Source: an archaeon (GTDB taxonomy: Archaea > Iainarchaeota > Iainarchaeia > Iainarchaeales > CSSED10-239). From it: a stretch of DNA of 32,000 nucleotides. Position numbers and translations under genes: made by a program. Each line of letters begins with the position of its first letter. Position 1 is the first letter of the stretch. Shown here in pieces: positions 1 through 32,000 of the stretch. Below the pieces are notes generated by a model. That model worked only from the letters and a program-made list of their open reading frames with translations, was not told where the DNA came from and did not search any database. The stretch is from positions 1 through 32,000 of the forward strand of contig DAOOUC010000005.1 in assembly GCA_035390665.1 (NCBI GenBank), given 5' to 3'.

Positions 1-79
1 ATCTTTAATTTCATAAATACTTTTAGTATAAATACATTTTTAATAGTAACTAAATCAATTAACTTGAATGAATTAGGTG

Positions 80-502
80 CTATTCCACATCATATTGAAA
101 AGTAGCGGTTGTACTTGGATCATATCCTGTTTTGTATGTTTTTGCTTTTAATGTTAAATCTTGTGTTATGGTTATTGGGGAATTATAAATTGAACTGCTT
201 TCGGTTGGTTCACTCTCATCTAAAGTATACCTTATTATCCCGCCACTTACTATTGTACGTAGAACAATTTCTGTTCCAGAAGTAACTGTGCCACTTGGAT
301 AAGAAGAAAGTGGTGGATAAATTACATAATTTTTATTTAACTCATCTTTAAATATTTTATTTGATTCTATATTTAATTCTGTATTATCTACGGATTTTGG
401 TTTTATTGAAGAAAAATAAAAAGCGCCTACAATAATTGCACCAATTACAAATATTCCAAAAATTATTAACCCTTCTAATGATGCTTGTCCTTTAGATTTC
501 AT
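80..502 (-). CDS. Archaeal type IV pilin-like protein (class III signal peptide) with C-terminal CHB_HEX_C-like beta-sandwich domain
   Basis: The N-terminus MKSKGQASLEGLIIFGIFVIGAIIVGAF has a short basic leader, a KG|Q cleavage context, a QxSxE motif and a hydrophobic helix, as in DUF361/EppA-type archaeal prepilins. The C-terminal stretch GGIIRYTLDESEPTESSSIYNSPITITQDLTLKAKTYKTGYDPSTTATFQY fits the remembered chitobiase/hexosaminidase C-terminal consensus (IyYTtDGs.Pt.sS.lY..Pi.i....lkA.a...G...S). The start lies 2 nt after the stop of the upstream pilin gene (TAATTATG). Confidence 0.65.
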   Translation of the reverse strand: MKSKGQASLEGLIIFGIFVIGAIIVGAFYFSSIKPKSVDNTELNIESNKIFKDELNKNYVIYPPLSSYPSGTVTSGTEIVLRTIVSGGIIRYTLDESEPTESSSIYNSPITITQDLTLKAKTYKTGYDPSTTATFQYDVE

Positions 503-504
503 AA

Positions 505-957
505 TTATTCAGAAATGGTGTATGTTCTTTCTTGTATATTACCATAAATGCTGTTTACACAAGCAATAACTTTAATTGTTGTGGTGCTAGTTATTTCTAT
601 TGGTGTAGTATACAAAGAAGAAGTACAAGTTGGATTATTTCCATTAGTTGTATAATGCATTTTTACATCAGAACAACTGCCTGTGTAATTTAAAGATATC
701 AATTGAGAAGTAGAATAAGTTCCTCCTGTTGGAGAAAAACTAATTGAATTTAATTGACTAGTAGTACAATTTATATTTGTTTTTTCAAATGCTCTAGATC
801 CATCAAAATCAGTAGATTTTGCTTTTTTTATATTCGTGGTTATTGTTGAAATATAATAGGTTCCTGCAACAAGTGCGCCAATTGTTAAAACCGCCATAAT
901 AATTAGAACTTCTATAGACATCTGCCCTTTTTCTTTCGTATATAACCCTTTTAACAT
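505..957 (-). CDS. Archaeal type IV pilin-like protein (class III signal peptide) with C-terminal CHB_HEX_C-like domain
   Basis: The N-terminus MLKGLYTKEKGQMSIEVLIIMAVLTIGALVAG has a KGQxSxE motif followed by a hydrophobic helix. The C-terminal stretch ISFSPTGGTYSTSQLISLNY...VKMHYTTNGNNPTCTSSLYTTPIEITSTTTIKVIAC shows the same CHB_HEX_C-like pattern. An AGGT SD-like element lies about 8 nt upstream of the ATG. Confidence 0.65.
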   Translation of the reverse strand: MLKGLYTKEKGQMSIEVLIIMAVLTIGALVAGTYYISTITTNIKKAKSTDFDGSRAFEKTNINCTTSQLNSISFSPTGGTYSTSQLISLNYTGSCSDVKMHYTTNGNNPTCTSSLYTTPIEITSTTTIKVIACVNSIYGNIQERTYTISE

Positions 958-1050: not shown

Positions 1051-1149
1051 TTATTTTCTTCTGAAAATAATTATTAGTACAATTAAAACAATTAAACCTA
1101 AAACAATTAAGCCCATGTTTCCTAAAGTCAAGAAACCTGTTATTGCTGA
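1051..1149 (-). other. Tripartite C-terminal sorting-signal-like tail (Ser-rich linker, TGF motif, about 20-aa hydrophobic helix, RRK)
   Basis: The last 32 aa of the 976-aa protein are SAITGF-LTLGNMGLIVLGLIVLIVLIIIF-RRK. The architecture resembles PGF-CTERM-type archaeosortase signals, but with T in place of P. Confidence 0.5.
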
Positions 1150-3981
1150 AGAATTACTTTTTAAGATTATTTTCTCTTTAGCTAAAACTTCTTCAGTTGC
1201 TTTGTCTTTTATTTTCAAATCTAATGTTTTGTTTTCTTTTAAAATAGATGGAGAAACAATTTTATATTGTTTAATTATTTTTTCTCCTGGTAAAATATTT
1301 ATTTCTTTATCTCCTTCAATTACATAAGAGTCATCCAATCCAAAATCAATAATTGTATTTTGAGTAATTGAACTATTGTTCTTTAAATTAATTTTAAGAT
1401 AATATACCTTATCTTGATTTTCAACACTAGCTGATATTGTTATTGGATCTGTTTTAGGAGATAAATCTATAGTAATTGGATACTTCTTAATTAAATTATT
1501 TCCTGAATATAATTCAATGTAACCGTTATATGCTCTTTTTTCTGCAGACTCAGGAATACTTAAAGTTAATGAAATTGATTTTCTATCGTGTGCCAAAATT
1601 TCTAAAGTTTTTGGGGTACTTGAAAATGTTTCTGGAAATCCAGATAGTTTTAATGTAACTGATTTTGAAACAGCAAAACTATTATTTACTGTTGTTGAAA
1701 TGTTTACATTTTTTGACAATGGAGTTATTAGTGTTGGATAAGAAACAATATTTATTCTCTCACTTTCTGAAATATTATTGTTAACTACTGTAAAATATCT
1801 TTTTGAAGAACAATTATTTAAAAGTACATCAAAATAAATATTTGTTGGATTATTAAAATTAGATAATTCTATTTCTTTATTAAAACTATCAAATCCATTT
1901 AACAAAATTATATTTGGCTCTATTGCTAATCCATTTCCAGAAATTAAAATCTTTCCGCCTCTTGAAGACCTATTTATGAAATTTAAATTTAAGTATTCAA
2001 TTGCATTATTCACAGAAATACTTGTTGGAACAATCAATTCAGAATCACAAACGTCATCTGAAAGATTAATTTGTTTATTATCACTTACTATAAAACCAGA
2101 AGTTGTTTTTGTAAGATCACAGGTTTTTCCATCCTCAAACTTTCCTGAAATTAACATCTCTAAACTTCCATTCCCTGTAAACCCAACACTCATTGTGTTT
2201 TGAGAATTAGAATTAACAGTTAATTGCTTATTTGTTACATTTCCTGAAAGACCATATCTGTTTTGGAATAAAACATTTGTTACATAGAATTTTTTATTAG
2301 TATTATTAAATATTTGAATATTATTATTTGTACCTGGCGTTATTATTTTATTATACACCCCTATATTACTACACAATAAATCTGAAGAATCTAATATTCC
2401 TATATTAAATTGCTTAACTCCAATTTCTGTAGTTGAACAAGTTTTACCATCTGCAAATCTTCCACTTACTGCTATTGATCCTTTTGGATTTTCAGTAGTA
2501 CTTACTGAATTTGTAATTAATTCAAAAGCGATTGCTTCTTTGTCTTTAGATAATATGCTTGAATCATAATTTACATTTCTTATTTCTGCTTTATTTGAAT
2601 TGTCATTTATTGAAAGAGAAGTAATACTAAACTGTTGATTAGAATTGTTTGCTATAAAAAAACCATTCTCTTCTGAATAGTTCTCACTTGTGTTTTCTAA
2701 TTGTTGTATATTTGTTGTATACAAGACAATGTCTTTACAACTTTGAATTGTTGAATTATTATTTGAAGAACTCGAACTACTTGTTCCTTCGTTTCTAATT
2801 GTTATAACTAAATTTTCTCTTTTTGTACATTTCTTGTCTTCTCTTCCTGATCTAACTAAATATCCTTCTATTTCTAAATCTATATTTTTTGTAGTTGTGT
2901 AATTTACGCTTTCTGTTTCAAATTCAATTTCTATATCTTCTGTAGAGTCTTCTCTTACTATTGTTGGCTCGTCTCTTATTCTAGAAGATATATATGAATC
3001 GTCATCTATTGTTATATCATCAATTTCAAAATCATAATCTTCTGATTCGTTTACTATTTTTACTGTTTTAAGTTCAAATGATTCTTCATCTAAAGTAAAT
3101 TTAGTATCATCTATAGAAATATCTGAACAACTACTTGTATTATCATTATCTTCATCATTAATATGATAATCTACTGTGTAGGTTTTTAGACACTCTTGTC
3201 CTAAACCATATTTTGCTCTTACATAAATATCAAAGCTTGAGTCTTCATCGTCACTTATTGTATCAGACTCTAAACTTAAATTTACTGTTCCAACATAATT
3301 TCCTGAAACATAGTCAGGATAATCAATATCACTTATATCTAATTCTGAAGAATCATCTGCAGTAACTGATAAAACAGTTAATTCTTCACTTGAGTCGTTT
3401 TCTATGTATAGTTTATAATTTTCTTCATCATCTTCTTCTAAATAAATATCTCTTCTACCTGATAAAAAGAAACTTGAACAAGTTGTTTGTGTTTCTTGAG
3501 AGTTATCGTTTGGATTTGTATTATCATCTACAGGATAAAAATAAGAACTTGGGGCGCCAACAGGATAAACATATGCAGAGCTTGTAGTGTAATAGTTTTG
3601 ACCTGATTGAGCATTAACCTGAATTACATATCCTTGATATTCAGGAGTTAAATAGAAAAGATTAGGATAATAATATTCTGTTGCACTACTTAAATAATAA
3701 GTTAAACTTGGAACTGAATAGAGGTAATCAAGATTACCGGAACCGTTTATTCCATATACTTGCGGAGAAACAATTACTGGAACATAAGAATATCCTGATG
3801 GAATATCTTCTGCTCTAAGTTTTAATTTCATACTTACATTATCGTAATAATTACCATATTGTATACTTAGATATTCTATTCCAGAATCTGTATTAACATA
3901 AGAATAATCTATTGTAAATGGAACAGCATAAACTCCTGCCATTACTAATAACAAACTTAATATTATCATTAACTTTTTCAT
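1051..3981 (-). CDS. 976-aa secreted, probably glycosylated cell-surface (S-layer/adhesin-like) protein with a C-terminal sorting-signal-like anchor
   Basis: Sec-type signal peptide MKKLMIILSLLLVMAGVYA. The protein then has a Tyr-rich region, a D/E-rich region, five Cys-bracketed modules of about 100 aa, and two CARDB/NEW3-like beta-sandwich-looking segments (e.g. LTLSIPESAEKRAYNGYIELYS). By manual count there are about 28 N-x-S/T sequons. The C-terminus is SSAITGFLTLGNMGLIVLGLIVLIVLIIIFRRK. Confidence 0.8.
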   Translation of the reverse strand: MKKLMIILSLLLVMAGVYAVPFTIDYSYVNTDSGIEYLSIQYGNYYDNVSMKLKLRAEDIPSGYSYVPVIVSPQVYGINGSGNLDYLYSVPSLTYYLSSATEYYYPNLFYLTPEYQGYVIQVNAQSGQNYYTTSSAYVYPVGAPSSYFYPVDDNTNPNDNSQETQTTCSSFFLSGRRDIYLEEDDEENYKLYIENDSSEELTVLSVTADDSSELDISDIDYPDYVSGNYVGTVNLSLESDTISDDEDSSFDIYVRAKYGLGQECLKTYTVDYHINDEDNDNTSSCSDISIDDTKFTLDEESFELKTVKIVNESEDYDFEIDDITIDDDSYISSRIRDEPTIVREDSTEDIEIEFETESVNYTTTKNIDLEIEGYLVRSGREDKKCTKRENLVITIRNEGTSSSSSSNNNSTIQSCKDIVLYTTNIQQLENTSENYSEENGFFIANNSNQQFSITSLSINDNSNKAEIRNVNYDSSILSKDKEAIAFELITNSVSTTENPKGSIAVSGRFADGKTCSTTEIGVKQFNIGILDSSDLLCSNIGVYNKIITPGTNNNIQIFNNTNKKFYVTNVLFQNRYGLSGNVTNKQLTVNSNSQNTMSVGFTGNGSLEMLISGKFEDGKTCDLTKTTSGFIVSDNKQINLSDDVCDSELIVPTSISVNNAIEYLNLNFINRSSRGGKILISGNGLAIEPNIILLNGFDSFNKEIELSNFNNPTNIYFDVLLNNCSSKRYFTVVNNNISESERINIVSYPTLITPLSKNVNISTTVNNSFAVSKSVTLKLSGFPETFSSTPKTLEILAHDRKSISLTLSIPESAEKRAYNGYIELYSGNNLIKKYPITIDLSPKTDPITISASVENQDKVYYLKINLKNNSSITQNTIIDFGLDDSYVIEGDKEINILPGEKIIKQYKIVSPSILKENKTLDLKIKDKATEEVLAKEKIILKSNSSAITGFLTLGNMGLIVLGLIVLIVLIIIFRRK
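1810..3480 (-). repeat. Protein-level tandem array of five divergent Cys-bracketed modules within the surface protein
   Basis: All ten cysteines of the protein fall at aa 168/264, 285/385, 415/515, 537/621 and 645/724, giving intra-pair spacings of 96, 100, 100, 84 and 79 aa. Linkers between pairs are 21-30 aa. The closing motif recurs as SGRFADGKTCS / SGKFEDGKTCD / RSGREDKKCT / YGLGQECL. Confidence 0.6.
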
Positions 3982-5399: not shown

Positions 5400-5951
5400 T
5401 CACTTATAAGAATATTTAAACCAGAAATAATAAAAACCAATTACAATAATTATTAAAAAAATTCTAAACAAGAAACCGTGCATAAACTCTGCAATAGCTA
5501 AACTGGAAGTAACTATTAATAATATGGTTAAAACAATTCTAAAAATATTAAAGAACACAACCACAGGAATAGTAAATAAAAAACCAATAATTCTTTTTTT
5601 TAGGTCTATTCCTTTAGATGCAAGTATTGCGCTAGCAAGTAAACAAAATTCAATAATTCCAGAACAAAGAAAACTAATAATTATTGGCTCTTTAATATTT
5701 GATACTGTTATCAAAGACAAATAATTAATATTATCAAAAATAAAAGAATTAGGAATATTAAATATTAATTTTAATATTACACTAGAAACATATCCATAAA
5801 AATAAATAATATAAGTATAAAATAAAGTAGAAAAAATCAAATAAAAAAAAGTAAAAAAAGCAATAAACAGAAACAAGAAATAAAACGCTTTCTTGTGTTC
5901 TTCTTTATTTTTTAGGTCTTTTTTTAATTGTTTAAAAAAAGTTTTTGCCAT
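5400..5951 (-). CDS. Exosortase/archaeosortase-family integral membrane protein (minimal, 183 aa)
   Basis: Polytopic hydrophobic protein with the ordered family motifs SFLCSGIIEF (Cys96), FFNIFRIVL (Arg138) and EFMHGFLF (His158). The Cys-to-Arg spacing of 42 aa is similar to that of characterised archaeosortase. An AGGT SD overlaps the rps8e stop. Confidence 0.65.
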   Translation of the reverse strand: MAKTFFKQLKKDLKNKEEHKKAFYFLFLFIAFFTFFYLIFSTLFYTYIIYFYGYVSSVILKLIFNIPNSFIFDNINYLSLITVSNIKEPIIISFLCSGIIEFCLLASAILASKGIDLKKRIIGFLFTIPVVVFFNIFRIVLTILLIVTSSLAIAEFMHGFLFRIFLIIIVIGFYYFWFKYSYK

Positions 5952-6869: not shown

Positions 6870-7538
6870 TCAATCAAAATCTCTAGTGAAAAGATAGCTC
6901 ATCTTTTCTGCTTTTTTTGGGCCCATTTTTTCTACTTCTTGTAATTGTTTCTTATCTGCATTTGCAATGGTTTTAATATTTTTAAACTTTCTTAAAAGAG
7001 ATTTAGCAAGACTTGGACCAATATCAGGAAAAGACTCTAAAATAAAAAGTTGTTGATCTGAAAAAGACATTTTAGTTTTACTAAATCTGTGCTTAATTTC
7101 TGTCTTTACACCATACTGTTCTCTTTTTGCAATAACATATAAGAAAAGAGCTGTTTCTTTTTGATTTCTTGTAAAATATATTGGCACCCTATAGTTTAAA
7201 CCAATGGCAGTCAATAAACCAATCATTGATTTATTGTTTATTCTATTACTATTTTCAGAAAAATTAATAATGCCTTCAACAATTAGACAAGGTTTTTTAA
7301 CTTTAGTTGATAACTCTTCTATCTGATTAAAAATCCTACCATCAATAATAGATGCCTCTAAATCCGCAATTGTTTTTCTTTCAACTAAAACATCTTCGCT
7401 TAATTGATAATCCCCAAGAGACAATTGCTCAAGCTTTATCTCAACTTTAAAATCATCAGTAGAAAGAGATTGAAGCTCTTGAGAAATTTGACTTACTCTT
7501 TCTCGTAAATCACAAATAATATGTATTTTTGAAGACAT
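6870..7538 (-). CDS. ERCC4/XPF-type nuclease with C-terminal (HhH)2 domain (Hef nuclease half)
   Basis: ERCC4 signature LSLGDYQLSEDVLVERKTIADLEASIIDGRIFNQ. C-terminal helix-hairpin-helix pair LESFPDIGPSLAKSLL...LQEVEKMGPKKAEKM. Confidence 0.85.
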   Translation of the reverse strand: MSSKIHIICDLRERVSQISQELQSLSTDDFKVEIKLEQLSLGDYQLSEDVLVERKTIADLEASIIDGRIFNQIEELSTKVKKPCLIVEGIINFSENSNRINNKSMIGLLTAIGLNYRVPIYFTRNQKETALFLYVIAKREQYGVKTEIKHRFSKTKMSFSDQQLFILESFPDIGPSLAKSLLRKFKNIKTIANADKKQLQEVEKMGPKKAEKMSYLFTRDFD

Positions 7539-7540
7539 AA

Positions 7541-9124
7541 TTAAAAATCACTTATTCTTTTTTGTTCTTTCTTCCTGACTTTTCTTATAGCTGTTTTATG
7601 AAAATTCTTAAGAATCGTTTTCATTCTTTTTTCTTTATTTTGAGAAACAGTAAAATATTTTTCATCAATTGTATCTTTATTAATCAATAATACAACTTTG
7701 CCAACATTAAATCTTCCTGTTCTTCCCCTTCTTTGTATATTTCTAATTTCTGAAGCTACGGCATCATAAAATATTACTAAATCAACAGACGGAATGTCTA
7801 GTCCTTCTTCGCCAACAGAAGTACATACTAGTATATTGTAAATTCCGGATTTAAAATCAAAAATAATGGATAACTGTTCTTTTTGAGAAAGGCCCTTATC
7901 AGAGGTTTTTGTGGCTTGTCCAACAAATCGTGTTGTTTTTATGCCTGTTTGTTTGTTTAAAAGTTCTACAAGGTTAGAGGCGTTGTCTCTAAAATTATTA
8001 AAAACCAGTATTTTTGATTTAGGGTTTTCTTTAATAAATTCTTTTACAATCTTTAATAATTCTTTTTCTTTTGAGTATTCTAATCTTTCTTTATTTTTTG
8101 ATAAATATAATACTATTTCTTTAAATTCATCAGAATTATAAAAAGAACTTGCAGCTTTACTAGAATGTTTTACTTTAGCTTCTTCAACTACTTTATTTAA
8201 ATAATTTTGAAATGCAACAAAGCCTTGTGTTTCAATTAATTCCAAAGCATGTAATGCTTTAAGAATAACAGATACAAAAGATATTGCAATAAAATGATTA
8301 GTTGATTTTGATTTATTTACTAATAAAAATAATTTTGCTTGAAGATCAATAATTTGTTTTTTTGTATAATTTTCAGGAATCACATATCCTAATCTTCTTA
8401 GTACCAAAATTTTAGATTTTATAAACGATTTAAGTTTTTCTGAAACAAATTTAGAATCTTTATCTAGTTCTGTATATATTGTTTCTATTTCTACATCATT
8501 AACATAATCTACAACATCAATATCTTCTTCTGTTTTTATCTCTATGTGTTTTATACCTAAATTATCTGCAACTTCTTGAATTTTTGATTTATTTGCACCA
8601 GGAGATGCAGTTAATCCCAGTCTTTTAGTATCTTCTGAAAAATATTGAGAAATGAAAGTATATGAATAATTCCCAACAGCTCTGTGTGCTTCATCAAAAA
8701 TAATTAAATTAAAATTATTTGAATCTAATAATTTTTCTTCTAAATCGTGCTGTATTGTTTGAGGAGTTGCACAAATTATTAGACCTTCTCCATCATAAAA
8801 TGCTTTTCTCTTTTCTTGAGTAATTTCCCCAGTTAAAAGAATTATTTTTTCTTCAGAAATTTTCAAGAAATTAAGAAGGCTTTTTTTATGTTGAGCAATC
8901 AATGGTTTTGTTGGAGATAAAAGAATGATTGATTTCTTAGGATTATAAGTATAAGCAATCAACAATACTGCAACAATGGTTTTACCTAAGCCCGTTGGAG
9001 CAACAACCAATGTACTTTCTTTAATTGCTTGAGCAGTAAGTAATTCTTGATAAAGTCTTTTCTTTATTGTTTCTTTCTTAACAAGCGGGTGTTCTATAAA
9101 AATAGAATTATCCATATTAAACAA
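7541..9124 (-). CDS. Hef/FANCM/Mph1-family SF2 DNA helicase (Hef helicase half)
   Basis: Motif I VVAPTGLGKT, motif II IIFDEAHRAV (DEAH), motif VI QRRGRTGR. An inserted helical domain lies between the RecA lobes. The stop codon is 2 nt before the nuclease ATG. Confidence 0.85.
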   Translation of the reverse strand: MFNMDNSIFIEHPLVKKETIKKRLYQELLTAQAIKESTLVVAPTGLGKTIVAVLLIAYTYNPKKSIILLSPTKPLIAQHKKSLLNFLKISEEKIILLTGEITQEKRKAFYDGEGLIICATPQTIQHDLEEKLLDSNNFNLIIFDEAHRAVGNYSYTFISQYFSEDTKRLGLTASPGANKSKIQEVADNLGIKHIEIKTEEDIDVVDYVNDVEIETIYTELDKDSKFVSEKLKSFIKSKILVLRRLGYVIPENYTKKQIIDLQAKLFLLVNKSKSTNHFIAISFVSVILKALHALELIETQGFVAFQNYLNKVVEEAKVKHSSKAASSFYNSDEFKEIVLYLSKNKERLEYSKEKELLKIVKEFIKENPKSKILVFNNFRDNASNLVELLNKQTGIKTTRFVGQATKTSDKGLSQKEQLSIIFDFKSGIYNILVCTSVGEEGLDIPSVDLVIFYDAVASEIRNIQRRGRTGRFNVGKVVLLINKDTIDEKYFTVSQNKEKRMKTILKNFHKTAIRKVRKKEQKRISDF

Positions 9125-16081: not shown

Positions 16082-16879
16082 TTATTTCTTTTTAAAAATA
16101 TTCTTCAGTGCTGTAAAAAATCCAGAAAATAATTTTTTCTTTTCTGGTTTTATATCAGTGTCAATTTCTTTGCCAGTTATTTTTCTAGCAACCGCTCTAA
16201 ATGAATTTGCGGCCGCACAACTTGGATTGTGCACTAATACGGGTTTAATTTTTTTTAATAAAAATGATTCTCTTATATCTTCAGAATAAGGGATTTTACC
16301 AAAAGAAGGCAACTCTAACATCTTCATGATTTCATTTTCAGAGATTTCTCCTTTAGTATTACTGTGCTTATTTATTATTACCCCCATTACCCTTTGATTT
16401 AATCTTTGAGCAACAATTTTTGCTTTAAATGCATCTGCAACGGATGGTGCCGTTGGTTCAGTAATTAACAAAATTTGAGTTGAAGCAGACATTGCAGCAA
16501 TTACATTCTTTTCTATGCCTGCTGGAGAATCAATTAAAATATAATCAAATTTTTTTTGAAGATCTCTAGTTATTGCAACCAATCTTTCAACATCTACTCT
16601 TGTATAAAAAGATATAGAAAGACCCGCAGGAATTATTTTTACTCCTGATGGTCCATCATAAATTGCATCTTGTGCAGGTGCTGAACCCAATAAAACATCA
16701 TGAATTGTAATTGGTGGAGTTTTTAATCCCATTAATAGACTTAAATTAGCCATAGCTAAATCAGCATCAATCATTAAAACAGAATATCCTAATTCTGCTA
16801 ATGCTATTCCTAAGTTCCCTGTAAGTGTTGTTTTCCCAACGCCTCCTTTCCCTGAAACTATTGCAATTATTTCTCCCAT
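16082..16879 (-). CDS. minD: MinD/ParA-family P-loop ATPase with C-terminal amphipathic helix
   Basis: Deviant Walker A SGKGGVGKTT directly after MGEIIAIV, plus MIDADLAMANL and a Walker B-like ILIDSPAGIE. The ORF track extends the gene to a TTG at 16915. I prefer the ATG at 16879 because it gives the canonical MinD N-terminus and has GTGA upstream. The C-terminus is KKKLFSGFFTALKNIFKKK. Confidence 0.85.
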   Translation of the reverse strand: MGEIIAIVSGKGGVGKTTLTGNLGIALAELGYSVLMIDADLAMANLSLLMGLKTPPITIHDVLLGSAPAQDAIYDGPSGVKIIPAGLSISFYTRVDVERLVAITRDLQKKFDYILIDSPAGIEKNVIAAMSASTQILLITEPTAPSVADAFKAKIVAQRLNQRVMGVIINKHSNTKGEISENEIMKMLELPSFGKIPYSEDIRESFLLKKIKPVLVHNPSCAAANSFRAVARKITGKEIDTDIKPEKKKLFSGFFTALKNIFKKK

Positions 16880-16902
16880 TTTTATTTCACATTTATATAA
16901 TT

Positions 16903-17349
16903 TTAAACGATACAATTTATAAAATTCTCTATTTCTTTAACAATTGTTAAAACTTCTATTCTTGAAAGTCCGTCGTTTGCTTTAATAAAATAAACTCTAT
17001 CTAGATTTTTAAAAATTATTTGCCAACCATTTGCTTCAATTAAAATTATAGACATATCTTTTATTTCTGAATTAATATAATTATACATTGCCGCACTTTT
17101 AAATCCTTCTTTTATGTCTTTGTTTGTACTTCCAATAATTATTCCATCAGTATCTGTTATTATTACATCATTAATTAGATGTTTTAATCTTAATTTTTGT
17201 AAAAAATCAGTCAAATCAGAAGAATGAATAAATATTGGCTTATATTCTAAAAGACTAGATATTGCATTTTCATTTTTTCTATCTTCAATATTTAATATTT
17301 TTGTTGATAATTTTGTAAAAAATTTTGTAAATAATGCCATTTTTGTCAC
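16903..17349 (-). CDS. Roadblock/LC7 (MglB-like) domain protein
   Basis: INDVIITDTDGIIIGSTNKD...AAMYNYI...SIILIEANGWQIIFKNLDRVYFIKANDGLSRIEV fits the Robl/LC7 pattern (v.d.dG..ia.....d....aA.......; ..i.ie...g.l.......l.v.a). A GTG start overlaps the upstream stop (GTGA); an alternative ATG is at 17340. This was judged by eye only. Confidence 0.55.
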   Translation of the reverse strand: MTKMALFTKFFTKLSTKILNIEDRKNENAISSLLEYKPIFIHSSDLTDFLQKLRLKHLINDVIITDTDGIIIGSTNKDIKEGFKSAAMYNYINSEIKDMSIILIEANGWQIIFKNLDRVYFIKANDGLSRIEVLTIVKEIENFINCIV

Positions 17350-17846
17350 TCTCTTAATAAATCATTTAAATTAAAATTATTTATAATTTCTTTATTAGAA
17401 ATTTCTGTTTTTATTTTGTCTGATAACAACAGTTCTATTTTCTTTTCATCATATTTTAAATTAATAAATATTGACTTTTTCTTTTTGTCAGAAATATTTA
17501 ATTGATATTTTATTTTTTCATTAAATAATAGAATTAATTTAATTTGATCTTGGGTGAGAGCAAAAATATTTAACATTCCTTTATTTAATCCATAACTGTT
17601 TAAACAATATAAAATTGCATCTTTGCCGTACAATTCAACATCATAACCAGTGATTAAAAAAATAGAACCTACAATTTGTCCTTTTGATAAAATAAGAATA
17701 GATTCTTCAAATCCGTATTTTCCTAGAACAGTCAAATAACAATACCCATCAAAATTTTTCTCACTTAAATCTAAAAATAATTTATGAGAATCAATCTTAT
17801 CCAATGGAACGTTTCTAACTATCGGATTAATTACAGGTAAATTCAT
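17346..17846 (-). CDS. Hypothetical protein, DUF4388/PatA-N-like pattern (166 aa)
   Basis: LFLDLSEKNFDGYCYLTVLGKYGFEESILILSKGQIVGSIF...LYGKDAILYCLNSYGLNKGMLNIFAL resembles the DUF4388-type layout (l..l....~tG.l.l......~~~i.~~~G.iv.A......G.~Al..ll....G.f.f). The assignment is weak. Confidence 0.4.
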   Translation of the reverse strand: MNLPVINPIVRNVPLDKIDSHKLFLDLSEKNFDGYCYLTVLGKYGFEESILILSKGQIVGSIFLITGYDVELYGKDAILYCLNSYGLNKGMLNIFALTQDQIKLILLFNEKIKYQLNISDKKKKSIFINLKYDEKKIELLLSDKIKTEISNKEIINNFNLNDLLRE

Positions 17847-31066: not shown

Positions 31067-32000
31067 TATGAAGAGCTTTTTTGATAAATATACTCCTAAA
31101 TCTCTTGATGAAATTGTTGGAAATAAAAAAGCAATTGAAGAGATTAAAGAATGGAGTAAAGAACATAAAAAACCTTTATTTATTTATGGCTCTCCTGGTA
31201 TTGGTAAAACTTTAACCGCTAATCTCTTAGCTAAAGAGCTTGGTTGGGCGATATTAAATACAGATGCATCTGACTTAAGAGACAAAGATGCTATAAAAAG
31301 CTTGTTTAGTGTGGCTTGTACAAGTAATACTCTTTTTTCTAAGACTAGACTTATTATTGTTGATGAAATTGATTCTATTGCAGACAAAAGAGGAGGAGAA
31401 GACTATGGTTTCTTTTCTGAGTTTGAAAAGATTATTGAAAAATCAATTCAACCAATTGTCTTTATTGCTAACGACCCTTATGAAAATAAAAAAATTAGGC
31501 CTTTGTTTGAGAAATGTCAACAAGTTAAGTTTGATCTTCCTTACAAGCAATCAATATTAAAATTTGCAAAAGATATTTGTGAGAAAGAAGGAATTGAATA
31601 CGATGTTGTTTCTCTAAACGCAATTGTTGAAAACTGTGCTAACGATATTAGAGCATTAATGATTGATATCTATACTCTTTCTTTTGATAAAAAAATAACT
31701 TTAGAAGATACAGAATCACTTGGAGATAGAAAGAAAAACGAAGATGTGTTTAAGGGATTACAAAAAATATTCTATCCTAAAGATTTCTATGAAACAAGAA
31801 ATGTTATTGATACTCTTGGGATTGATTGGGATCTTTTATTTGCATGGATTGAAGAAAATACCCCTAGACAATATAGAAACCCTAATAATCTTTCAAGAGC
31901 TTTTGAAAACTTAAGTAAAGCTGATATTAGTAATGCAAGAATTAGAGGAAATAACTGGGTAATGCTTAAATATGTTTTTGATTATTTAACTGTTGGTGTT
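31067..32000 (+). CDS. rfcL: Replication factor C large subunit (partial at window end), with an apparent +1 frameshift in a T7 run at codons 4-6
   Basis: The frame of 31083 onward is open and reads FFDKYTPKSLDEIVGNKKAIEEIKEW...GSPGIGKT (Walker A)...LIIVDEID (Walker B)...FIANDPY...NDIRALM. The only upstream ATG (31067) is in another frame and runs ATG AAG AGC TTT TTT TGA. The ORF track did not report this gene. Confidence 0.8.
31076..31082 (+). repeat. T7 homopolymer at the frame discontinuity of rfcL
   Basis: Seven consecutive T (five at the end of line 31021 plus two at the start of line 31081), counted directly from the sequence. Confidence 0.9.

Follow-up and report, generated by a model that had tools for sequence, protein, structure and literature searches.

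Archaea of the DPANN group depend on contact with surfaces or with other cells, and their pilins are mostly unannotated. What do two small tandem genes near one end of such an archaeal contig encode, which the public NCBI annotation describes as chitobiase-domain proteins only? The two genes, here called pil2 and pil1, lie in a stretch of 32,000 nucleotides (nt) from a member of the Iainarchaeota (contig DAOOUC010000005.1 of assembly GCA_035390665.1, positions 1 to 32,000). "The window" means this whole stretch, which is the terminal 32 kb of a 55.9-kb metagenomic contig. A first-pass annotation of the window had read the pair as subunits of a candidate adhesive pilus. We observed that the two proteins share one architecture, a class III-type leader, a conserved hydrophobic helix, a linker and one CHB_HEX_C_1 beta-sandwich. 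We consider the class III display model, taken in its entirety, reasonably probable: pil2 and pil1 would form a bicistronic unit that encodes two paralogous, type IV pilin-like proteins for surface display.

Both open reading frames (ORFs) were recovered where the first-pass annotation had placed them:

505 to 957, minus strand: pil2, a 150-amino-acid ORF, class III-signal protein with a single CHB_HEX_C_1 head
80 to 502, minus strand: pil1, a 140-amino-acid ORF, paralog of pil2

The two genes have the same orientation and are separated by a gap of only 2 nt, and their products are 32% identical (E 9e-15). The motif GAAGGT stands 8 nt before the ATG of pil2. At least eight contigs, drawn from several samples, carry identical or nearly identical copies of pil1 and pil2.

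The N-terminus of pil1 reads MKSKG/QASLE, where the slash marks the predicted cleavage, after Gly5, of a 5-amino-acid leader (residues 1-5, nt 502-488). That of pil2 reads MLKGLYTKEKG/QMSIE, with an 11-amino-acid leader (residues 1-11, nt 957-925) and a predicted cleavage after Gly11. Both predicted mature proteins have Gln at +1 and Glu at +5. A FlaFind-type test, extending from the leader to the hydrophobic stretch, recognised MKSKG/QASLEGLIIFGIFVIGAIIVGAFYF in pil1 and MLKGLYTKEKG/QMSIEVLIIMAVLTIGALVAGTYY in pil2. When this pattern and a hydrophobicity filter were applied to all six-frame ORFs of at least 60 amino acids in the window, only pil1 and pil2 matched. A leader of 5-13 amino acids ending in Gly, followed by Gln at +1, Glu at +5 and a hydrophobic helix, is what defines the EppA substrates of Methanococcus maripaludis, the DUF361-type proteins EpdA-E, MMP1685 and MMP0600/0601/0709 (PMC3875500). 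The leaders of pil1 and pil2 agree with this description at every point and, as in M. maripaludis, the genome holds several paralogous pilin-like genes at scattered places. Judged by their sequences, the Epd/EppA-type (DUF361) pilin-like proteins of methanogens are the closest family by signal. A Sec-type signal was rejected for both proteins, since the hydrophobic stretch extends over about 22-25 residues and no AxA-like site follows it, unlike in the neighbouring proteins.

The hydrophobic helix comprises about 25 residues and carries Gly at +11, +16 and +21 in both proteins. Indeed, we observed that 15 class III proteins of the clade, with unrelated ectodomains, have a common module, [KR][GA]/QxS[IL]ExLIIxGxLVIGAxIxGx[FY]Y. 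Since this N-terminal module is conserved beyond mere hydrophobicity in front of unrelated ectodomains, it points to a specific helix-helix or machinery interaction rather than to a plain membrane anchor.

Behind the helix and the linker, the C-terminal domain of each protein matched the CHB_HEX_C_1 family PF13290, with 57.2 bits for pil1 (E 1.7e-15) and 54.3 bits for pil2 (E 1.3e-14) at a cutoff of 22, and the Fn3_assoc family PF13287, with 52.9 and 46.0 bits respectively; the first-pass annotation had rightly recognised a CHB_HEX_C-like domain at this place. In the AlphaFold2 model of pil2, a helix (residues 15-41) is followed by a linker (residues 42-65) and a beta-sandwich (residues 66-150, nt 762-508), the head having a predicted local distance difference test (pLDDT) score above 92. 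In that of pil1, the helix covers residues 9-31, the linker residues 32-60 and the beta-sandwich residues 61-140 (nt 322-83), with a head pLDDT of at least 95. The helix and the 25-30-residue linker were modelled with low confidence in both proteins (pLDDT of about 45-60), the helices by themselves reaching about 50-60. There is no separate pilin beta-sheet in these models, in which only the helix and the low-confidence linker precede the single beta-sandwich.

The closest solved structure found for the head with Foldseek is an accessory beta-sandwich of an Akkermansia glycoside hydrolase (8ayr; E 6e-5, root-mean-square deviation of 1.9 Å over 80 columns), followed by the accessory beta-sandwich of the GH20 hexosaminidase BT0459 (6q63) and then by generic immunoglobulin (Ig)/Fn3 domains. 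No archaeal pilin or archaellin appeared among the top 50 matches, in agreement with the earlier remark that neither protein has an ordinary pilin head. A profile search with the two proteins gave 16,834 matches; among the 150 listed, nearly all are giant multi-repeat CHB_HEX_C_1 proteins, one of which contains as many as 72 copies. As a generic Ig-like repeat of extracellular proteins, CHB_HEX_C_1 does not imply carbohydrate binding; for the pil1 and pil2 heads such binding is not supported, the only argument for it being the name of the Pfam family. The pil heads resemble the CHB_HEX_C_1/Fn3_assoc modules of glycoside hydrolases and giant bacterial surface proteins in belonging well above cutoff to PF13290 and in having the fold of 8ayr and 6q63. 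Elsewhere, CHB_HEX_C_1 usually occurs in tandem arrays or at the ends of enzymes with Sec signals, whereas pil1 and pil2 carry a single module behind a class III signal.

Both genes are real and evolve under purifying selection; their N-terminus is conserved and their exposed part changes fast. pil2 is kept in three lineages, its orthologs P0167 and P0168 being 66% and 58% identical to it. Compared with its ortholog in a sister lineage (L015), pil2 has a ratio of nonsynonymous to synonymous substitution rates (dN/dS) of 0.32; split by region, the first 40 codons and the linker each give 0.15 and the head gives 0.54. As a yardstick, dN/dS is 0.03 for S8e, 0.055 for ERCC4 and about 0.23 for the neighbouring surface protein and protease. 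Among the population variants of pil1 and pil2, every amino-acid change lies at position 38 or later. A word-index search with pil1 alone retrieved only pil1 itself. In L015, pil1 is a pseudogene (L015:10454-10938): its start ATG has become AGG, an in-frame stop interrupts the signal region and five indels are present, at about 80% nucleotide identity, while the pil2 ortholog beside it (66% identity) has stayed intact. Another relative, L017, has an intact pil1-like gene behind its pil2 homolog.

The pair lies directly downstream of a large surface protein gene on the same strand, as had been noted in the first-pass annotation, and upstream of a protease gene. The neighbouring features are:

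1 to 14, minus strand (ATG at 14-12): start of an M6-family metalloprotease of 980 amino acids; the rest lies outside the window and the gene is complete in L001:10489-13431
1051 to 3981, minus strand: 976-amino-acid S-layer-like surface protein, upstream of the pair and a conserved flank of the slot
5400 to 5951, minus strand: exosortase/archaeosortase-family membrane protein of 183 amino acids (TIGR04178, 42.9 bits; multi-transmembrane profile)

From the stop of the surface protein gene to the start of pil2 there are 93 nt, including a T-rich stretch, and 65 nt separate pil1 from the metalloprotease gene. The complete order is S8e, archaeosortase-like gene, a gene for 277 amino acids, surface protein, pil2, pil1, M6 protease. 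In L015 this order from S8e to the M6 protease is kept, with pil1 pseudogenised.

Scans of genomes and metagenomes brought two loci, then four, into the comparison; each of the six bears on the class III module, and L005/L011 and L012 bear on the locus as well. In the more distant relatives L011 and L005, the slot between the homologous surface protein and the M6 protease is occupied by four giant proteins of 1066, 923, 913 and 1151 amino acids. All four have class III-type N-termini; those of 923, 913 and 1151 amino acids have the signal type of pil1 and pil2, and the one of 1066 amino acids begins with MDKKGQAALEV. Their ectodomains contain BspA/DUF285-like repeats, GLUG-like repeats and CHB_HEX_C_1 domains. 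Genes for giant class III proteins thus positioned beside the same M6 protease were found at L011:1135-13462, in L005 and at L012:863-6127; in L012 the class III proteins come after the protease and not before it. More proteins with the same N-terminus, of 474-1109 amino acids, are encoded in L012, L006 and L014. Because relatives fill the slot with giants, three of which bear the same leader type, pil1 and pil2 appear as the minimal members of a clade-specific, modular class III-signal family. Some linkers of the giant class III proteins contain Cys-rich segments of the CGDG type.

The variable class III cassette slot beside a module-sharing protease is, in our opinion, the most interesting aspect of this locus. 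The protease has a Sec signal, an HEFAH motif and a match to TIGR03296 of 137 bits (cutoff 110.8), and it contains four CHB_HEX_C_1 domains (PF13290 in four stretches, 237 bits) and no C-terminal anchor. The closest relatives of the pil1 head are domains 2 and 3 of this very protease (54% and 51% identity), a neighbour of which the first-pass annotation was unaware, and the corresponding domains of the sister species' protease follow with 51% and 46%; the pil1 head is far nearer to them than to the pil2 head. The pil2 head clusters first with those of its orthologs; next come domains 1 and 2 of the 1151-amino-acid class III-signal protein of another archaeon (46-51%), and these domains have a conserved Cys pair in common. 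Over its full length, pil2 is 34% identical to the first 176 residues of that protein. These relationships suggest that the heads of pil1 and pil2 come from the same pool of modules as the domains of the neighbouring protease. A recent gene conversion between pil1 and the protease gene was also considered and is not supported, the identity at the protein level being only 54%.

How could such proteins work? A prepilin peptidase encoded elsewhere in the genome would remove the leader, and type IV filament-like machinery would then take up the N-terminal helix. The protein would thereby end up in a pilus or short pseudopilus, either at its tip or scattered along it, or else in a bindosome-like surface array, where the beta-sandwich, held off the cell on its linker, may act as a binding module. 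In this scheme pil1 and pil2 are probably accessory and ligand-binding, that is, tip or minor subunits or components of a short fibre or bindosome-like array.

Several observations weigh against this display model. The PF04021 model of the class III signal, which spans 27 positions and has a gathering score of 23.7 bits, gave 17.7 bits for pil1 and 18.1 bits for pil2 (E of about 0.003). The class III signal proposed in the first-pass annotation therefore stands as regards the quoted motifs, which are present in both proteins and match the FlaFind-type pattern, and falls short as regards the family model, since both scores are below its gathering score. Among relatives in the clade with the same module, a protein of L005 reached 21.5 bits and one of L006 reached 24.4 bits, above the cutoff. 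Likewise, the TIGR04205 model (classIII_w_PIP) gave 21.2 and 25.2 bits for the two proteins at a cutoff of 65. In the AlphaFold2 models the head is not packed against the helix, unlike in classical pilins, the helix and linker having a pLDDT of about 45-60. We know of no established function for the CHB_HEX_C_1 module. Along contig positions 5476-55932 (about 50 kb), neither a secretion ATPase nor a platform protein nor a prepilin peptidase was detected. Finally, the cleavage of the leader, the assembly of pil1 and pil2 and their ligand are all features that we infer.

The first-pass annotation had reported that the window contains no pilus ATPase, platform protein or prepilin peptidase, and scanning every window ORF of 70 or more amino acids with Pfam gave the same answer. 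It had also proposed a search of the rest of the contig. Here, besides the Pfam scans, ORFs without annotation were checked by their multi-transmembrane profile along positions 5476-55932, and none of them looked like an assembly gene. The same contig carries a separate tandem cluster of four small pilin-like genes, some 10 kb past window position 32000 (L018:13787-15524). The products, of 149, 168, 97 and 167 amino acids, have Cys-rich C-terminal parts and no Pfam match, and their N-termini contain MFKKG/QISIE, NNKG/QMIVLD, MKKG/FIFS and QKG/LFELF. The cluster lies between the EF-1beta and ABCE1 genes, is conserved in the sister species (L023:12026-13755) and may be a minor-pilin-like set. 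With at least six proteins bearing such signals in 50 kb, a processing peptidase elsewhere in the genome is implied, if not shown.

Could a dedicated adhesive type IV pilus nevertheless have pil2, with or without pil1, as its main structural subunit, the helices forming the core and CHB_HEX_C_1 being exposed on every subunit? A length of 140-150 amino acids and a layout of helix plus beta-sandwich are typical of archaeal pilins, the signal is of the Epd/EppA type, the helix is conserved while the head is variable, and pil2 has been kept in three lineages. We nonetheless regard this as unlikely. No assembly genes adjoin pil1 and pil2, the homologous slot of a relative holds proteins of 913-1151 amino acids that are implausible as main subunits, and pil1 has been pseudogenised in the sister lineage. 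Moreover, the syntenically conserved four-gene cluster is a better candidate for the core pilins, and the linker of 25-30 amino acids, predicted with low confidence, leaves the head unpacked on the helix. Since the same module heads proteins of 474-1151 amino acids in related archaea, three of which sit in the homologous slot, we take the signal for a general surface-display module of the clade rather than for the mark of a main filament subunit. Together with the loss of pil1, the lack of linkage to assembly genes and the separate pilin cluster, the existence of these giants favours an accessory role. The adhesive pilus subunit of the first-pass annotation thus survives in the layout of signal, helix and single beta-sandwich and loses ground on the machinery missing from about 50 kb, the giants sharing the module, the pil1 pseudogene and the separate cluster.

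A broader interpretation joins three claims. In it, a conserved pilin-type module would act as a universal adaptor that loads interchangeable ectodomains, from Ig-like heads of 80 amino acids to adhesin-like arrays of more than 1000, onto type IV filament machinery. The locus would be a hypervariable cassette slot between an S-layer-like protein and a secreted protease with which it swaps modules, and pil2 would be the smallest natural pilin built wholly from CHB_HEX_C_1, able to polymerise into an adhesive fibre. Taken jointly, these three claims appear doubtful to us.

Another alternative is that the N-terminus is an uncleaved signal-anchor, so that pil1 and pil2 would be type II membrane-anchored Ig-like surface proteins without any type IV filament machinery. 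The sub-threshold PF04021 scores, the absence of machinery from about 50 kb of the contig and the presence of the same N-terminus on very large proteins would all be expected of such anchors. The register of [KR]G/Q and Glu at +5 is strictly maintained, the pattern of Gly at +11, +16 and +21 recurs in 15 proteins with unrelated ectodomains, the fit to the experimentally defined EppA substrates is exact, and the related L006 protein clears the PF04021 cutoff. All of this argues against a simple anchor, which is in our view rather improbable.

The weakest of the alternatives, which overlaps with the display model, makes pil1 and pil2 partners of the M6 metalloprotease that bind the same substrate or surface, concentrating the substrate or tethering the unanchored protease in a bindosome-like manner: it can call on the similarity of the pil1 head to domains 2 and 3 of the protease and to those of the sister species, on the order of surface protein, class III proteins and M6 protease kept in L015 and L011, and on the Sec signal and missing C-terminal anchor of the protease, and it is quite improbable, because CHB_HEX_C_1 is a common repeat of unrelated surface proteins, the class III proteins of L012 come after the protease, and pil1, the most protease-like member, is precisely the one that L015 has lost.

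Returning to the display of single modules by a type IV pilin-like N-terminus, several known systems offer precedents. In bacteria, modular pilins are exemplified by PilB and PilC of Streptococcus sanguinis, which carry a vWA and a lectin module, respectively (Raynaud et al. 2021, PMC8179133). They share with pil1 and pil2 a pilin-type N-terminus, a linker and an independently folding module for display on type IV filaments, with diverse module architectures (PMC8179133), and by analogy they are the closest system in principle. In the bacterial proteins a complete pilin module, helix and beta-sheet, precedes the graft, whereas pil1 and pil2 have only helix and linker and so fall outside the strict definition; in addition, the two proteins are archaeal and have an Epd-type class III signal instead of the IPR012902 motif.

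The nearest archaeal precedent, again by analogy, is provided by the sugar-binding bindosome proteins of Sulfolobales and the proposed archaeal SPIII binding proteins (bioRxiv 10.64898/2026.04.22.720090). As in pil1 and pil2, non-pilin domains stand behind a class III signal and a hydrophobic helix, and the genes lie away from the machinery. Those proteins have substrate-binding domains of ABC transporters and are encoded at transporter loci, whereas pil1 and pil2 neighbour a surface protein, an archaeosortase-like gene and an M6 protease. Pfam gave no match of pil1 or pil2 to a substrate-binding-protein family, and no ABC importer was found in the window. The same preprint reports that methanogens, Thermococcales and some DPANN archaea have the type IV filament system of the M. 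maripaludis DUF361 proteins, its "system 1", and its text does not mention CHB_HEX_C (bioRxiv 10.64898/2026.04.22.720090). From the DUF361 proteins of M. maripaludis, pil1 and pil2 differ by their sub-threshold PF04021 scores, by a globular part that is a PF13290 module also present in the neighbouring protease, and by the lack of Epd assembly genes and EppA in contig positions 5476-55932.

The first-pass annotation did not recall any description of this fusion, and indeed the literature searched contains no paper joining CHB_HEX_C with a pilin. We consider pil1 and pil2 to be a domain combination that is new but follows a known design principle, an incremental extension and not a new system. 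It carries the idea of the modular pilin from bacteria to archaea, and a conserved class III module in front of swappable ectodomains at one locus offers a handle for finding surface-interaction proteins of DPANN archaea. With 140-150 amino acids, the two proteins are small enough for expression, for cleavage tests with EppA- or PibD-type peptidases and for ligand screens.

A link between the pair and archaeosortase was rejected on two grounds. With TIGR04205 only the signal part aligns, at scores far under 65, and neither pil1 nor pil2 has a C-terminal sorting signal. The ArtD/PIP-CTERM context is likewise absent, the nearby archaeosortase-family gene fitting only the generic TIGR04178 model (42.9 bits at a cutoff of 23, and no match to the typed ArtA-E models) and its putative target ending in [ST]GF and not in PIP. 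This gene lies 1.4 kb upstream of the gene for the 976-amino-acid surface protein and is syntenic in L015. The surface protein is equipped with a Sec-type signal, and its C-terminus is composed of [ST]GFLTLGN, a transmembrane helix and RRK; an ortholog with 70% identity is present in L015 and a homologous C-terminus in L011. The archaeosortase-family protein probably processes this protein and not pil1 or pil2. The C-terminus resembles a PGF-CTERM-related sorting signal with a different motif.

The window as a whole is AT-rich, with about 26% G+C. It also encodes the ribosomal proteins S8e, L10P/P0, P1/L12 and L1, enolase, both PheRS subunits, LonB, PCNA and aIF5A, and scans with Rfam and for tRNAs found no RNA genes in it. 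Farther along the contig, a CCA-adding enzyme is nearest, among named organisms, to that of "Candidatus ainarchaeum sp." (50% identity) and to those of Diapherotrites (about 37%), a weak hint at a DPANN archaeon of the Iainarchaeota/Diapherotrites group.

Some further observations were made along the way. A Hef-like helicase (DEAD/Helicase_C) and an ERCC4-HhH nuclease are encoded by separate, unfused neighbouring genes (6870-7538 and 7541-9124, both on the minus strand), and in L015 two small ORFs lie between them. On the same contig as the pil genes, tandem paralogs of 296 and 289 amino acids, beginning with MAITRTLKVIG and MAITKTLKVIG, were found at L007:17195-18956 (plus strand); they are not at the same place in L023. 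In a family-level relative (L022:1111-2909), a bAvd-like gene next to a reverse transcriptase gene (RVT_1) may be a diversity-generating retroelement, with HicAB and AAA_14/DUF4143 genes nearby. Finally, at 16082-17846 of the window (minus strand), a MinD/ParA-type ATPase gene is preceded by two overlapping small ORFs of 148 and 166 amino acids that match no family, and the three possibly form one unit.

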